In this document: one piece after another, positions 590 to 6,200 of the stretch
Layout of the letters: each line of letters starts with the position of its first letter
Position numbering within the stretch: position 1 is the stretch's first letter
DNA from: Oligoflexales bacterium
GTDB taxonomy: Bacteria; Bdellovibrionota_B; Oligoflexia; Oligoflexales; JALZUQ01
Assembly (NCBI GenBank): GCA_023301465.1
Contig: JALZUQ010000035.1
Location: 320-64,319, forward strand
Reading direction: 5' to 3'
Length of the DNA: 64,000 nt
The notes under the pieces: generated by a model
What the model was told of the DNA's origin: nothing
The model's input: the letters and a program-made list of their open reading frames with translations, nothing else
The model's database searches: none
Program-made: the position numbers and the translations under genes

Positions 590-951
590 CTAAAAATCTC
601 CTTATTTTTAATACAATAAGACAGTGGAAACAGGTTTGCAAGTTAGTTAATGTTTGCACCCCCCACATTTGAAAGTAGAAACACAACTGTTTTCATTTAC
701 AATATACGTCCGATTACTCAGGAATTTAAAAGCAACTGCTGTCATCACCTATGACCTGCCTTGGATATTCCCATCGCTTGCAATCGACGAATAGCAGACG
801 ATCTGGACAGACCAACTTTGGCCGCAACTTTTTTTGTACTCATATCACTAGCCAGATATAAGTTTTAGTAACATGGACGCCCTTTAAGAACACACTTCCA
901 AGAACTATCCGATAATTTAAAAACATCAAATAACAGCCTACAGGAGCACCT

Positions 952-1422
952 TTAATATCTAGTAAAGAAATTCTCAAGTTTATCAGAAAAAATAAGAATC
1001 GCTAAACCAAACACCGTTGTAAAAATCGCTTTACCAAAATGCTCAAGACCAATAGCTGCACCTACCGCTGCAAGCATCCAGACAACTGACGCTGATGTAA
1101 TTCCTTTAATATTACCATTTTGGGAAAAAATAACACCACCACCCAAAAAACCAATACCTGTAATCACCTGACCTAACACCCTTGTTGGGTCTGCAACACC
1201 CCCAGTAAGACTCTTACCTATAGAAATAAAAAATGCTGTTCCCACACAAACTAAAATACAGGTTCTTACACCAAAGGGTTTATCGCGTTTTTGTCTTTCT
1301 ACTCCAAATAGAAAACCACATATACTTGCTAATATTACTTTAAGCATAAATATATTCGTCACATCACCAAAAAGGACGAGAAGAAGACTCTTTAAATCGA
1401 AGCTAAAGTCTTGCATGTTCAT
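952..1422 (-). CDS. MgtC/SapB family membrane protein
   Basis: Motifs GVERQ..KPFGVRT, DPTRVLGQVITGIGFLGGGVIF, GITSAS. Confidence 0.9.
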   Translation of the reverse strand: MNMQDFSFDLKSLLLVLFGDVTNIFMLKVILASICGFLFGVERQKRDKPFGVRTCILVCVGTAFFISIGKSLTGGVADPTRVLGQVITGIGFLGGGVIFSQNGNIKGITSASVVWMLAAVGAAIGLEHFGKAIFTTVFGLAILIFSDKLENFFTRY

Positions 1423-1657
1423 TTCAATTCCTTGATTTAATCAATTCATGAGTTATATTTATTATTTTACAACATAAAGACATAATTAAGCAATAACAGT
1501 AAGAACACCCATAGGTTGGCTCTCTCTAAGCAGTCCACAAGAAGGATTGCAGAAGATGACAATAGCAAGATTCAAACAATTGACGACCTTTATCAATATA
1601 TTCTTAAAATATTGAATTTTTTTAAGCTATGAAACCGCTACTGAACGAGAATAAAAA

Positions 1658-2386
1658 CTAGTTAAGCAGCCCAACTTCTTTTAGATCGTTTAACTGAGAT
1701 TCACTTATTTTGGACGTGGTTGGATCTTGTAAATATTTGTAAACATTTTCTTCTATGCAATATAAATCTGGCTCATGTTGAAGTTCATTTCTAACAAATA
1801 ATAAATACTGAGTTTCTTTATCAGGTCGAACATTTGTTGGTTGGTTTTTATCGTTTTTTGATGCTTCAACAGCCTTAGCAATATTGAATTCTTGCTTTAA
1901 CGCACGAAATGGTTTTTTGGTAAAAACTAAAGATTTACCTGAAATCTGATCAACACTAGCCTTACACATATCTAAAACAGCATCTTCAAAACTTAAAAGA
2001 TCTTTTAACCAAACTGAATATTCTTGAAATACATGATGGTTTAAGTTGTTTTTAATACACTCAAGAAACTGTCTAGAATATTCATTTTTACCATTATGAT
2101 CACTGCTAATACGAATAGCTGATGGTTCATATACAACCTGCCAAAAATCATATAATGCACCATTATCAATAAATCGAAATAAATTTGGTAGTCGCTTCCA
2201 AAGATCGTCCCAACGACCTTCTGCTTGCTCGTTTCCGTATTTATTAAGTTCTTCATCGTTTTTGAGTGATTCAATTGTGTTTTTTTGTAAACTATTCAAA
2301 CCATCAAATAAAAGACTATCAGCTAATTCAAACCCAACTGGTTGACGAATTAACATACTCACACTTTTTAGTAGTGCATCATTCAT
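1658..2386 (-). CDS. Putative MNIO partner protein (DUF2063/HvfC/BufC-like)
   Basis: Start overlaps the DUF692 stop (ATGA, 2383-2386); pattern LNKY...LP.LF...F...Y.P...YS.QFL...WLKDLLSFEDA resembles DUF2063-type partners. Confidence 0.6.
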   Translation of the reverse strand: MNDALLKSVSMLIRQPVGFELADSLLFDGLNSLQKNTIESLKNDEELNKYGNEQAEGRWDDLWKRLPNLFRFIDNGALYDFWQVVYEPSAIRISSDHNGKNEYSRQFLECIKNNLNHHVFQEYSVWLKDLLSFEDAVLDMCKASVDQISGKSLVFTKKPFRALKQEFNIAKAVEASKNDKNQPTNVRPDKETQYLLFVRNELQHEPDLYCIEENVYKYLQDPTTSKISESQLNDLKEVGLLN

Positions 2387-3255
2387 ACTACAGACACCCC
2401 ACTTTTCATTTGATTTAAAGCATTAGGGTAAATAGTTATATCTGATTGATTTAGTATATTATTTGCAATATTTACTTCATGAATGAGTTCATTAAAGGTT
2501 GGAATATTTTGATCTCTTTCTACAATCGTAAATTGAGGTTTCTTTTTTGTAACTAGGTATTCATATAAATCCCATACAGGTTTTGGTATATTACTCCCGT
2601 GGGAATCATAAAGCACACCATCTTCTTCGCTGCCACCAGCAAGGTGTACACCCTCTACAGAGCCGAGATTAATTTCATCAATCCATTTATAGGGATCGAA
2701 ACCAAAATTAACACTATTAATATAGGTATTTGCAAGATCCATAATCATCTTACACCCAGTTTTTTCTAAGACTTTATTTATAAATTCAGTTTCACTATAT
2801 GGGCAATTAGGAACTATAAATCTATTGGTAATATTTTCTATAAGAAACGGAACCTGAACTTGATCTTGAATTCTTGAAATGTTTTCACACACTCCATTAA
2901 AAACATTATCTGTCCAAGGCAAAGTAGTTAACTGCCCCATCTCAATTCCATTGTACTTTGTAAAGCATAAGTGATCGCTATAAAAAACGGTGTTCACCTG
3001 ATTCATAACATCTTTGATTTTATCAAGATGGCTCTGATGAAACTCACCGACCGAACCAACCGACATTTCCACACTATGAATAACAACTGGCACATTTGAC
3101 CGTTGAAGCGTTTCAAGAAAAGAGGCTTTCTTACCAAAGAAAAAACTCTCCGGAATAAGCTCAATTAAAGGAAGTTGACTAATCAGGTCATCCACTCCTT
3201 CTGTATTTGCGATTTCAAATGGCAGTTCTAAACCAACACCGAATTGTTTATCCAT
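2383..3255 (-). CDS. DUF692 family multinuclear non-heme iron oxidative enzyme (MNIO)
   Basis: 290 aa with ordered motifs ELIPE, HSVEMSVGS, SDHLCF, LIENI, MDLANTYINSVN, VHLAGG, YDSHG, IVERD matching DUF692 Fe-ligand motifs. Confidence 0.92.
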   Translation of the reverse strand: MDKQFGVGLELPFEIANTEGVDDLISQLPLIELIPESFFFGKKASFLETLQRSNVPVVIHSVEMSVGSVGEFHQSHLDKIKDVMNQVNTVFYSDHLCFTKYNGIEMGQLTTLPWTDNVFNGVCENISRIQDQVQVPFLIENITNRFIVPNCPYSETEFINKVLEKTGCKMIMDLANTYINSVNFGFDPYKWIDEINLGSVEGVHLAGGSEEDGVLYDSHGSNIPKPVWDLYEYLVTKKKPQFTIVERDQNIPTFNELIHEVNIANNILNQSDITIYPNALNQMKSGVSVV

Positions 3256-3285
3256 TTTAATACCTAATTCTTATTTCTGAGATGA

Positions 3286-3330
3286 AGTAGGTGTCATAAG
3301 TAGATTACTCAACTCATGACACCATCTACT
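3286..3330 (-). promoter_or_regulatory. Long stem-loop between precursor gene and MNIO gene
   Basis: mRNA sense GGUGUCAUGAGU-U-GA-GUAA-UC-U-ACUUAUGACACC forms a 12-bp stem plus GNRA-capped tip; no U-tract follows. Confidence 0.7.
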
Positions 3331-3353
3331 AAGTTAGACAAACTTAGGATTGT

Positions 3354-3488
3354 CTAGCGACGACCGCATCTACGACCACATCTACGACCACATTTACGAC
3401 CGCATTTACGACCGCATCTACGACCGCATCTTGCAGCAGTAGTTTTTCCAGCTTCTGTGTTACCTGATAACGTGTTTAACTTGATCAT
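3354..3488 (-). CDS. Putative RiPP precursor peptide, 44 aa: MIKLNTLSGNTEAGKTTAAR-(CGR[R/K])x6
   Basis: ATG at 3488 with GGAGG at 3501-3497 (8-nt spacing), located after the ABC transporter stop; six Cys; directly upstream of DUF692. Confidence 0.88.
   Translation of the reverse strand: MIKLNTLSGNTEAGKTTAARCGRRCGRKCGRKCGRRCGRRCGRR
3360..3431. repeat. Six tandem 12-bp repeats ACGACC(G/A)CAT(C/T)T encoding the repetitive precursor core
   Basis: acgaccgcatct, acgaccacatct, acgaccacattt, acgaccgcattt, acgaccgcatct, acgaccgcatct. Confidence 0.95.
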
Positions 3489-3510
3489 TACTCTATCCTC
3501 CGTTGAGTGT

Positions 3511-5271
3511 TTAAATATATCTGTTCGATTCATCTGCAGTTGAATCGGCAAGATTGGGATTAATGTTCGAGACTTTTGAAGACTCGAAATGAACATGATG
3601 ATCTACATCCAAATTTTTTGGAGCAATATGAGAAACAAGACAAATTGATTTATCTTGTTTTATTTTATTGAGAGCATCTACTACGTAGTTCACACTTAAA
3701 TCATCCAGAGAAGCAAATGGTTCATCAAGAAGTAATATATTTCGATCGCTTAATAATGCACGAGCTAAGGAAATTCTATACTTTTCACCTTCACTCAAAT
3801 TTTTTCCTTGATCATGGATTAATGAATTTAACCCACCTTTATCCTTAAATCGCGGCATTAAGTTTAGTTGCTCAAGAACATCAAGAAGTTCTTTCTCAGA
3901 GTAATCCTGACCTAACTCTATGTTCTCTCTTAGGGTGCCTTGAAACAAAAATGGAACTTGTTCAACATATGCAGCAAGTTTTGTAGGTAAGTAGTTGCCT
4001 TTTATTCCATGGTAACTAGAAGAGAATAAATTTTGTGTGCTGACTTTCATCGACGTAAAATCAGCACTACGCAAACCACTCAGAAACTCTAGAAAAGTTG
4101 ATTTACCACAACCGGAGTGACCTTGAATTAACGTTGTTTTACCGTTTTTTAATGCAAAATTAAACGGCTCCATCAGCATCAAACCGTCAGTGGTATGCAA
4201 CTGAATATTTTTAATTTCAATACTACAAACTTGATTATTATCTAAAAGATGATCTAGATCTTGATAAATTTCTTGCTTTGGAGGTTGAAGCAACAATGCA
4301 AGTCTTCCACCTTCAATAAAGTAAAGATTCCAATCAAAAATAGAACCAATCAATGAAAGAGCACTTGAATAAAACATTCCAATATAAAAAGGAAAAACAA
4401 GAACTTCACTCAATCCAAGTTGACCTTGATTTAGAGACCATGCAGCTCCAGACAAACAAACCGTTAAAAGAACTTGAGACACAAAAGAATTCGCACCCAT
4501 TAATGACCCAATGATTTTCGCAACTTTCATGCTTGAAAAAATAAGACTGTCAATTTTATTTTTGAATTTTTTGTTCATAAAAGACTCTGCCGAAAAAGTT
4601 CGTACCGTTCGAAAACCTTCATAGTTTTCCATAAAGCCTTGAAATATTTCACCGTGAGTTGTTCTTAATGATTCTAAAAGTGGATTTACTTTGGTTTGAA
4701 TCCACAGGTTAAGAAATGCAACTAAACTTGCAGTTATCAAACATATTGTCGCAGCAAGAGGACTATGAATATAAAAAAGAATCGTAATTCCAATTACGGT
4801 GACAAAGCTCTGAATTTGAGAAGGTATGCTTACCGTTATGAAGTCTTGAGCACTCCGTAAGTCCATAGACAAACGAGTCAACCAATCTCCACGTTGACTT
4901 TCGTCAAACGATCGAGCATTTGATTTTTGTATGGATTGTAATGCTTGTATTCTAAGACTTGCTTCGACCTTTAATGTCAACCACTCCTCTACAATTTGAC
5001 TAACCACTGATGAAACTAACAAACACCCAGCAATTACTAGACCAAAAACAATTAATGGTTTTAATAAACTAGATACATCTAGGGTTTGTCCATTTGCAAT
5101 TAAGGTTGCACCATCGGTAAAGTAAATCAAAAGTCTCGGGGGTAAAAGCCCAACCAACGAACCCAGTGCTCCAATAACAATTGCTAAACAATAACGTGAT
5201 CCAAGTTGGGATACTTGTGATTTTAGGAGTTTTAAAGAAGCGGTTGTTTGTGGTGTGTGACTAAGTTTCAT
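3511..5271 (-). CDS. ABC exporter, fused TMD+NBD, no C39 peptidase domain
   Basis: N-terminal TM helices; Walker A GHSGCGKST, signature LSEGE, Walker B LLLDE, H-loop VSH. Confidence 0.9.
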   Translation of the reverse strand: MKLSHTPQTTASLKLLKSQVSQLGSRYCLAIVIGALGSLVGLLPPRLLIYFTDGATLIANGQTLDVSSLLKPLIVFGLVIAGCLLVSSVVSQIVEEWLTLKVEASLRIQALQSIQKSNARSFDESQRGDWLTRLSMDLRSAQDFITVSIPSQIQSFVTVIGITILFYIHSPLAATICLITASLVAFLNLWIQTKVNPLLESLRTTHGEIFQGFMENYEGFRTVRTFSAESFMNKKFKNKIDSLIFSSMKVAKIIGSLMGANSFVSQVLLTVCLSGAAWSLNQGQLGLSEVLVFPFYIGMFYSSALSLIGSIFDWNLYFIEGGRLALLLQPPKQEIYQDLDHLLDNNQVCSIEIKNIQLHTTDGLMLMEPFNFALKNGKTTLIQGHSGCGKSTFLEFLSGLRSADFTSMKVSTQNLFSSSYHGIKGNYLPTKLAAYVEQVPFLFQGTLRENIELGQDYSEKELLDVLEQLNLMPRFKDKGGLNSLIHDQGKNLSEGEKYRISLARALLSDRNILLLDEPFASLDDLSVNYVVDALNKIKQDKSICLVSHIAPKNLDVDHHVHFESSKVSNINPNLADSTADESNRYI

Positions 5272-5457
5272 GTTATTTTTATATCACGGCAAAATTACTT
5301 TTTGCAATATGTCAAAACGACTATGTCATACCGCCAAGAATTCGGCCGATTTGGCATACTAAATATAGTTATCTCTAAATAGTACTCTTAGGCTGTAAAG
5401 TAAATTTTGTCTGGCACATTTTTTATTTTCATTAGAACTTAAATTAAAGCACAAAAG

Positions 5458-5991
5458 CTACCTTCTACTTAAGATTTTATAAATACCAAAACACCCAATT
5501 GAAAATTGCCAGATAAACACCTTAGAGTCTTATGCACTCGCAAATGCTCCAAGCTCTAAAATAAAACCATGAAAGTTGTATCCAAAATTTACTCCGAGCA
5601 GATAACCTACATCATTATCACTACTGTTATTAACATTTGAAATTGTTGAAATATTTGCAATCTATATAGGTGAAAGATGAAAGGCGGCAACGTCTGATAA
5701 CTCATCACCATCAAAGCTATAACTACTTGAATAATAAACCAGATCCAAACCAATACCGAGAACATGCTGTTTGGCAGAAGGTTGGGACAACATATATTTA
5801 TCATCTAAACCTAACAAAAAGACAAAAGCATACTTAAGCATTAGGTCAAATTGAGGCGTAGATCGGGCTCTTACTCCAGCTTTAATGATAGGTACATAGA
5901 CATCTTCTAAAGTCTCTTACGCATCACAACTACTATCATTTATAAATCTGATATTTTGAACAGCTATGGCATCAAAACTTATCCATTCACC
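5458..5991 (-). pseudogene. Degraded outer-membrane beta-barrel-like gene
   Basis: One minus frame reads ...YVPIIKAGVRAR...HVLGIGLDLVYY...DVGYLLGVNFGYNFHGFILELGAF...WQFSIG with in-frame stops at 5917-5919, 5662-5664, 5530-5532. Confidence 0.45.
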
Positions 5992-6200
5992 TTATCCAGT
6001 TAATGATACGCGTATTAATCGCTCTAAGTTTCAATAACTCATACAAGCAGTTTATCTTAATTATAAAACAACCTCAGAAAAATAGGAATCATTGATACGG
6101 AAAATGTTTATAAGCATTTGAGTTAGCACTCAACTTGTTATCTGACGCACTCCCTGATATAAATATAACTACTATTTTATAAGATTAGGAGTTCAGTATA

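Follow-up and report, generated by a model that had tools for sequence, protein, structure and literature searches.

A probable RiPP precursor with tandem Cys-Gly-Arg-basic repeats, encoded with an MNIO enzyme, a partner protein and an ABC exporter in an Oligoflexales bacterium

The range of new peptide chemistry traced to MNIO enzymes is growing fast, and the surveys of these enzymes have so far been centred on precursors that carry a signal peptide and are encoded with DUF2063 partners. According to the available parts of two sources, BufB, HvfB, FonB and NgoB convert Cys to 5-thiooxazole with the loss of 4 H per site, and the substrates of HvfB, FonB and BufB are Cys residues in repeats of the [K]-C-G type (PMC13097082; preprint 10.1101/2025.11.18.689057). 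In the accessible text of the first of these, FonBC is described as accepting Arg for Lys before the Cys, while a small residue after the Cys is required; the catalytic residue of FonB is given as Asp249, and the residue next to it determines specificity, with Phe found in Lys-Cys and Asp in Cys-Lys enzymes (PMC13097082). The scope of the captophorin survey, as far as its accessible text states, was MNIO-PME1 clusters in Pseudomonadota (preprint 10.1101/2025.11.18.689057). The available part of a broader description of the MNIO landscape names several 'adjamnio' groups, mentions that many minor precursors are unidentified because small ORFs are hard to call, and pairs precursors lacking a signal peptide with non-DUF2063 partners designated 'PME-type 2' (PMC12452194).

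The locus described here lies in a stretch of 64,000 nucleotides (the window) from the genome of an Oligoflexales bacterium. On its minus strand, the window features a compact cassette of four genes, coding for an ABC exporter, a small ORF, an MNIO and a partner protein of 242 aa.

Precursor gene and organisation of the cassette

The precursor gene (3354..3488, minus strand) encodes 44 aa and ends with the stop codon TAG (3356..3354 in minus-strand reading). Its translation is MIKLNTLSGNTEAGKTTAA followed by RCGRRCGRKCGRKCGRRCGRRCGRR. The leader comprises residues 1–19 (3432..3488) and is followed by the core, residues 20–44 (3357..3431), which reads R-CGRR-CGRK-CGRK-CGRR-CGRR-CGRR. The composition of these last 25 residues (6 Cys, 6 Gly, 11 Arg and 2 Lys) agrees with the count given in the original prediction. 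The leader lacks a hydrophobic core, its longest run of small or hydrophobic residues being 4, and is predicted to carry no secretion signal. Neither Pfam nor NCBIfam yielded a match for the precursor ORF.

The original prediction had placed the start of the gene at ATG 3488 and had considered the 80-aa longest-ORF call (3354..3596) to be mis-started, and both statements hold. A Shine-Dalgarno motif GGAGG (3497..3501, minus strand) is separated from the ATG (3488..3486) by a spacer of 8 nt (3496..3489). This can be read directly from the sequence, and the identical arrangement of GGAGG, 8 nt and ATG is found in the closest relative, G001. The longer call begins within the ABC gene (3511..5271) and shares 86 nt with its 3' end, read in a different frame; the distance from the ABC stop codon to ATG 3488 is 22 nt. 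The extension to 80 aa is not conserved, because the precursor frame of G001 is closed by a stop codon 21 codons upstream of the ATG. GGAG-type Shine-Dalgarno motifs were found 5–10 nt before the chosen ATG in 20 of 22 family precursors (upstream strings read by eye), with G-runs only in front of the ATG of the precursors from L162 and L027. A plus-strand ORF of 30 aa (3350..3442) is the antisense frame of the repeat and was rejected as a gene.

The core is encoded by six tandem 12-bp units specifying CGR[RK] (3360..3431, minus strand), the sole array reported by TRF (period 12, 6.0 copies, 93% matches, score 116). The units read TGCGGTCGTAGA, TGCGGTCGTAAA, TGCGGTCGTAAA, TGTGGTCGTAGA, TGTGGTCGTAGA and TGCGGTCGTCGC. 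They had been described as differing only by synonymous TGC/TGT and conservative AGA/AAA (Arg/Lys) changes. Both kinds of change are present, but the list was incomplete, since the last unit also contains a synonymous AGA/CGC difference. The constraint at the protein level that had been deduced from this pattern is shown by the relatives (see below), whereas the window array alone, with just four variable positions, is too weak to prove it. At position 3485 of the window, one low-depth contig of an independent study has a T>C change, which would replace Ile by Val as the second residue of the leader; many relatives have Val there. Of the sequencing data compared, only the probable source run covers the whole repeat. 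The contigs of this second study are fragments, none of which extends across 3360..3431, and no indels were listed.

The ABC exporter (3511..5271, minus strand) is a half-transporter of 586 aa in which permease and ATPase are fused (Pfam ABC_membrane 107 bits, ABC_tran 80.5 bits). It scores below all NCBIfam cut-offs, with CydD as the best model (178 bits), and Pfam identified no C39 or other peptidase domain in it. ABC homologues were found upstream of the precursor in 9 of 10 genome loci, the exception being G037. No protease gene recurs in the cassette across the loci compared, and the cassette encodes neither a leader protease nor an outer-membrane export component.

The MNIO gene (2383..3255, minus strand) starts 98 nt after the precursor stop codon, and its own stop overlaps the start of the partner gene (1658..2386, minus strand) by 4 nt. 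Between precursor and MNIO, a strong stem-loop without a U-tract is located at 3290..3323 (minus strand). Folding of the precursor–MNIO spacer (98–101 nt) yielded −29.5 kcal/mol (z = −4.0), and 0 of 200 shuffles were as stable. The 100 nt after the precursor stop codon reached z ≤ −3 in 16 of 22 precursors, and U-runs follow several of them. A structured element at this place would be expected to raise the level of the precursor transcript relative to that of the enzyme genes. In a promoter and terminator scan of 900..6200, promoter-like sites were fewer than in shuffles and a canonical terminator near the precursor was not found; Rfam gave 0 matches over the whole window. Upstream of the ABC gene, a region of about 930 bp (5272..6200) contains short ORFs only, also without an Rfam match, and may comprise the promoter region or the remains of a gene. 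On the other side of the cassette, a gene of the MgtC family (952..1422, minus strand) follows the partner gene in the same orientation after 235 nt. It was considered as a cassette member, but was left out of the system because it is absent from the G001 locus.

Distribution and conserved features of the family

A phylum sample of 131 genomes, of which 95 belong to the order of the window, was searched with the window MNIO. Orthologues at E ≤ 1e-55 were obtained in 9 of the 131 genomes, including the source genome (G000), with two loci in G059. A metagenome scan with the MNIO alignment A1 returned 52 loci. Generic scans for small ORFs upstream of MNIOs revealed another 21 homologous small ORFs, which are distributed over 19 related loci.

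The maximum-likelihood tree calculated with IQ-TREE comprises 64 MNIOs. The sequences had to be at least 250 aa long and to cover about 220 or more query residues, which left out L001, L196 and other fragments. The window MNIO belongs to a clade of 22 rows with support values of 100/99 and a branch length of 0.71, into which all precursor-associated enzymes of the tree fall. A basic ORF with a short leader and Cys repeats was found directly upstream and in the same orientation in all 20 assessable clade members; the clade was set by the enzyme tree, the relatives are not independent, and the precursor label was set after the peptides had been seen. The upstream DNA of the two other rows, L154 and L158, amounts to only 94 and 1 nt. 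Two members were labelled by eye, since the ORF of L159 is cut by the contig end and the ORF extension in L165 overran the small gene.

Among 59 loci with an MNIO identity below 40% (54 of them below 35%), the precursor type was found only in L165 (37%), and neither a partner of the A2 type nor an ABC gene was detected. Ten of these loci feature EGSCG repeats with a signal peptide instead. MNIOs outside the clade with identities of 26–32% are preceded by signal-peptide or lipoprotein precursors of the EGSCG type (10 loci). At identities of at least 37%, the partner HMM (A2) matches 24 and the ABC query 15 of 25 non-truncated loci. Precursor type, MNIO clade and partner family are co-inherited, and so is the ABC gene in most loci. 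In three loci outside the window clade (L179, L184 and L198), signal-peptide repeats of the PRC[GA]RRCA type lie beside MNIOs of the oxazolin-like clade; the Arg-Cys repeats may have arisen there by convergence. Long-leader precursors precede the MNIOs of the sister rows L163 and L166 and end in hydrophobic C-x-C-x-C cores (CACACLCACGI and CACVCVCACIISAA).

The leaders of the relatives are 17–25 residues long, mostly start with M-[ILVF]-[KRN]-[EQL]-[IVFL] and are followed by C-terminal Arg/His-rich Cys repeats. The precursor of G001, whose MNIO is 77% identical to that of the window, starts with MNKLNTLSG and continues with eight CSRx units and a terminal CGR. CG[RH]R repeated 7–8 times is typical of the genomes of family f11 and of L196, CG[HRSN]R repeated 7–8 times is found in L162, L164 and L165, and the precursors of G059 contain CGR[RAS] five and eight times. 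More divergent units are CWRN (L026, L155, L157), CH-x-C (L168, L027), C-x-C (L159, L160, L161) and C-x-R-P-S (L028, L156). Two tandem precursor genes are present in each of G041, G043 and L196. In the loci L029, L030 and L196, the two tandem genes differ in repeat number or sequence.

Cys residues follow each other at a spacing of 4 in 91 of 120 intervals from 22 precursors. The 22 peptides have between 4 and 10 Cys residues each, which bears out the expectation that repeat number varies between genomes. The Cys number also differs between paralogous precursors of one locus, and repeat number therefore changes over evolutionary time. The original prediction that the repeat preserves Cys-Gly-Arg-basic does not hold for the family in these terms: Cys periodicity and basic residues are kept family-wide, but Gly and the fourth position vary. 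Gly is common after Cys, yet some relatives have S, H, A, W or R, and N, A, S, G or H also occur at the fourth position. The net charge of the core is about +12 in the window and ranges from +1 to +14 across the family.

Arg is encoded by CGT, CGC, CGA, AGA and AGG across the loci. In the C-S-R-x units of G001, Ser is encoded alternately by TCA/TCT (TCN) and AGC. These codon types are not one step apart, so that the peptide repeat has outlived the decay of the DNA repeat. Changes between the leader DNA of the window and that of G001 are mostly synonymous (TTA/CTA, TCA/TCT). A frameshift or a loss of Cys within the repeat, named beforehand as an observation that would speak against the gene, was looked for and found in 0 of 22 precursors. 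Judged from this comparison of sequences, in which the relatives are decisive, the precursor frame is under constraint at the protein level.

These results also bear on the question of whether the ORF is a gene for a modified peptide at all. It could instead be a chance frame over the 12-bp repeat, as tandem repeats keep all frames open, or encode an unmodified Cys/Arg-rich peptide unrelated to the MNIO. Consistent with such an explanation, the ORF has no family match, no RNA run among the sequencing runs searched contains the stretch, and a profile of the 22 precursors gave only 1 match at E ≤ 0.01 in 5.8 billion proteins (P0001, a CWRN-type 46-mer), a number that is not informative on rarity because short low-complexity peptides cannot reach significance. 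However, the ORF is found at the same place and in the same orientation, with Shine-Dalgarno motifs, in all of the assessable clade members, and in G001 the peptide pattern outlasts the DNA repeat. As a crude control, CGxx x4 DNA patterns were collected from other places in bacterial genomes, of which there are at least 120. An MNIO or partner was near 0 of the 120 loci among the matches listed, all of them GC-rich microsatellite-like frames without a family member. We hence regard an origin as a chance frame or unmodified peptide as highly improbable. The 44-residue peptide is very likely the substrate of the adjacent MNIO, as suggested by the comparison of the loci.

A second proposal concerned the fate of the core. 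In the window core, a dibasic pair lies between every Cys-Gly, and the modified core could be cut at RR/RK into several products of tetrapeptide size, which would be identical as the units are identical. The wider family argues against this. The dibasic pair is missing from many members, and repeats of the same clade that lack dibasic sites include CWRN, CHRC/CHHC, CSCRC, CGRA, CGRS and CxRPS. Units within one peptide often differ, so that the products would not be identical. The frequent absence of the dibasic pair weakens the idea of single-unit cleavage, and so do the lack of a recurrent protease gene and the fact that the ABC protein has no C39 domain; we consider such cleavage very unlikely. 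The idea of the core as a multi-site metal binder, put forward alongside it, is plausible.

MNIO enzyme, partner protein and proposed mechanism

The window MNIO consists of 290 aa and matches PF05114 with 241 bits (cut-off 25). In the NCBIfam comparison, it obtained 211.8 bits with BufB (cut-off 310), 172.2 bits with HvfB (cut-off 360), 101.2 bits with ApyH, 62.3 bits with ChrH and 45.2 bits with MbnB (cut-off 325). It is thus below the curated cut-off of every characterised family model, and for this reason its chemistry is extrapolated. The ranking of BufB before HvfB, followed by ApyH, ChrH and MbnB, was the same for all 10 clade MNIOs scanned. Compared to solved structures, the profile of the clade matched 3bww best (1e-51), followed by TglH (6e-32) and MbnB (2e-17 or weaker). 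The invariant His/Glu/Asp/Asn columns of A1 presumably correspond to the metal-ligand pattern of MNIOs, which they resemble. Residues 246–249 of the window MNIO are E-R-D-Q and align to E-R-D-F of 3bww, which we take to be a Lys-Cys-type enzyme. The aligned clade members have E-[RW]-D-Q in 6 of 10 cases and E-[RW]-T-[SD] in the other 4 (L026, L027, L031 and L033). Because Thr replaces, in these 4 of 10, the Asp that aligns with the proposed catalytic base, the clade may not use the captophorin mechanism uniformly.

The partner protein (242 aa; ORF call and AlphaFold model) comprises a helical N-terminal domain and a winged beta/alpha C-terminal domain. It had no Pfam or NCBIfam match even at E = 10. 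In its AlphaFold model (pLDDT 84.2, pTM 0.80), eight helices are followed by a three-stranded sheet with helices. Foldseek searches with this model returned only TglI (8hi7_A/8hci_A) at E ≤ 0.001, with a probability of 1.00, TM values of 0.55–0.60 and 12–13% identity; NGO1945 (3dee) was next (probability 0.93). A partner with a DUF2063-like helical domain and an RRE-like domain is therefore encoded after the MNIO as judged by fold only. DUF2063 was found in 0 of 8 aligned partners at E ≤ 10 and in 0 of 94 family representatives at E ≤ 0.001, and a match to MbnC was not found. The window partner fits the 'PME-type 2' category as described in the accessible text of PMC12452194. An exhaustive profile search against 1.84 billion representatives (50% identity clusters) yielded 122 matches at E ≤ 0.001, of which 110 were at E ≤ 1e-10, and on account of this low number we regard the partner family as small. 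In 3 of the 94 representatives scanned (P0042, P0085 and P0076), the partner is fused to Fe/2-oxoglutarate dioxygenase domains of the TauD or PhyH type, which suggests an extra hydroxylation in some relatives. Prediction of the complex of MNIO, partner and precursor scored 0.59, compared to 0.00 and 0.01 with unrelated partners and 0.56 when the MNIO was replaced, values that we take to speak neither for nor against the complex.

Taken together, we conclude that the 44-aa ORF is probably a RiPP precursor which acts in a leader-dependent manner and gives rise to an ABC-exported polycationic peptide, with its Cys residues oxidised by the MNIO, probably to 5-thiooxazoles, and its core left intact. 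The leader would be bound by the TglI/NGO1945-like partner via the C-terminal domain of the latter. The partner appears to be translationally coupled to the MNIO, with which it probably forms a heterodimer. The MNIO would then oxidise, one after another, all six Cys residues in the (R)CGR[RK] repeats. From the nearest enzyme families, 5-thiooxazole is the likeliest product, which corresponds to a mass shift of −4 Da for each Cys and of about −24 Da for the whole peptide. Gene linkage points to the dedicated upstream ABC half-transporter as the route by which the cationic product would cross the inner membrane. The core most likely stays uncut as a multi-site thiolate/heterocycle peptide.

The product may bind metals, like bufferins and oxazolins, or act on an anionic target. 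The first role is hinted at by His-rich variants (CGHR, CHRCHH), the second by the extreme positive charge. Several observations count against the proposed mechanism. No RNA run among those searched contains the stretch, the MNIO scores are below the cut-offs of all characterised families, Thr replaces the aligned Asp in 4 of 10 clade members, and the cassette has neither a leader protease nor an outer-membrane export component. With its net charge of about +12, the core would be an odd cation binder, and the best match to the modelled fold of the partner, TglI, serves an MNIO of a different reaction.

The same precursor and cassette could also be combined with another Cys chemistry, such as formation of a methanobactin-like oxazolone-thioamide, TglH-like carbon excision or an undescribed reaction. 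This is a serious alternative, although a less probable one than 5-thiooxazole formation. In its favour are the MNIO family scores, all of which remain under the curated cut-offs, the long, well-supported branch of the clade (0.71) and the fold of the partner, which is best matched by TglI and not by a DUF2063 protein. Furthermore, the Asp of the ERD motif is followed by Gln, compared to Phe or Asp in the two captophorin groups dealt with in the available text of PMC13097082, and the Asp itself is replaced by Thr in the four enzymes mentioned above. On the other hand, BufB and HvfB are the top models for all 10 members, MbnB reaches only about 45 bits, and 3bww is a better match than TglH or MbnB among the solved structures. 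In addition, [basic]-Cys-Gly is the local motif processed by FonBC and HvfBC according to the accessible part of the same source (PMC13097082). 5-Thiooxazole formation is thus preferred here.

Relation to known systems

Searches of the full-text literature yielded no description of a CGRR-type or related repeat precursor with an MNIO, although an earlier listing in a supplement is possible. In the supplementary tables of PMC12452194, the three repeat strings used for the search gave 0 matches; alignments in its PDF supplement and the data sets of PMC13097082 may list related peptides. We assign the peptide to a small family of presumably modified and exported peptides that appears to be undescribed, and regard the cassette as a new architecture of precursor, partner and export within MNIO RiPPs. 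It provides an orphan MNIO clade with a precursor family that has a defined start, a leader motif (M-hydrophobic-K/R-E/Q-hydrophobic) and a repeat logic, as well as with an unannotated partner family (about 120 of 1.84 billion representatives, clustered at 50% identity). The expected mass shift per Cys and in total makes the proposed chemistry testable. Six or more heterocycle or thiol sites on an Arg-rich backbone would be chemically unusual if the proposal is true.

The system may go further and represent a distinct class of MNIO peptides, which depends on a leader instead of Sec, has its own ABC pump and presents tandem Cys-x-Arg-x units. The product would then be a polycation with a modified Cys at every fourth residue, serving not in copper buffering but on an anionic target (membranes, nucleic acids or polyphosphate) or as a new metallophore, and its chemistry may differ from that of captophorins, given the clade members without the aligned Asp. 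We put this forward as a tentative proposal that has somewhat less in its favour than against it.

Bufferins (BufABC) provide the best model for the window MNIO (BufB), and a chemistry targeting Cys is presumed for both. However, bufferins have signal peptides, DUF2282 or 6/12-Cys domains without tandem tetrapeptide repeats, and DUF2063 partners. None of these features was found in the window, and the BufB score is below the cut-off. The source genome also harbours a canonical bufferin-like locus (L001, 1176..2813 on contig C20 of G000), consisting of a 99-aa signal-peptide precursor with 4 Cys, a 272-aa MNIO and a 170-aa downstream ORF. A third MNIO gene of this genome is located on contig C8. 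With regard to methanobactins, the MbnB score of the window MNIO is below the cut-off of 325 and its partner has no MbnC match.

The pearlin/3-thiaglutamate system (TglA-TglHI) shares with the window a precursor without a signal peptide and a partner whose nearest predicted fold is TglI; the window system falls into the 'PME-type 2' category in the terms of the accessible text of PMC12452194. TglH, however, acts on a single C-terminal Cys that is added by a PEARL enzyme, whereas the window core has six internal Cys residues and Arg at its end, and its four-gene cassette lacks a PEARL ligase. The profile of the window MNIO likewise matches 3bww over TglH.

Heterocycloanthracin/sonorensin (TOMM) and the radical SAM Cxxx-repeat RiPPs are similar in design, with a short leader and tandem Cys repeats, each of which is a modification site. 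In contrast to the window peptide, they are modified by a YcaO cyclodehydratase or a radical SAM enzyme and are not Arg-rich. The models TIGR03601, TIGR04118 and TIGR04333 matched the window precursor only weakly and non-significantly (E values of 0.08–1.1). Since there is no significant sequence similarity, we interpret the likeness as an analogy of design and not as membership.

The captophorins oxazolin, fontiphorin and gonophorin (HvfABC, FonABC) are likewise among the closest known systems. They also consist of tandem short Cys repeats, with K-C-G in place of the R-C-G observed here, and each Cys is a target of an MNIO acting with an RRE-type partner, as is predicted for the window peptide. 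HvfB was the second-best model for the window MNIO, with a score short of its cut-off. Captophorins have a Sec signal peptide, a five-residue EGKCG unit containing Glu, a DUF2063 (PME-type 1) partner and often DoxX, but no ABC exporter. The window cassette differs in its 19-aa non-secretory leader, its four-residue unit without an acidic residue, its partner without a Pfam match and its dedicated ABC gene. Compared to the EGKCG family of oxazolins, only the [basic]-C-G dyad is in common with the window repeat.
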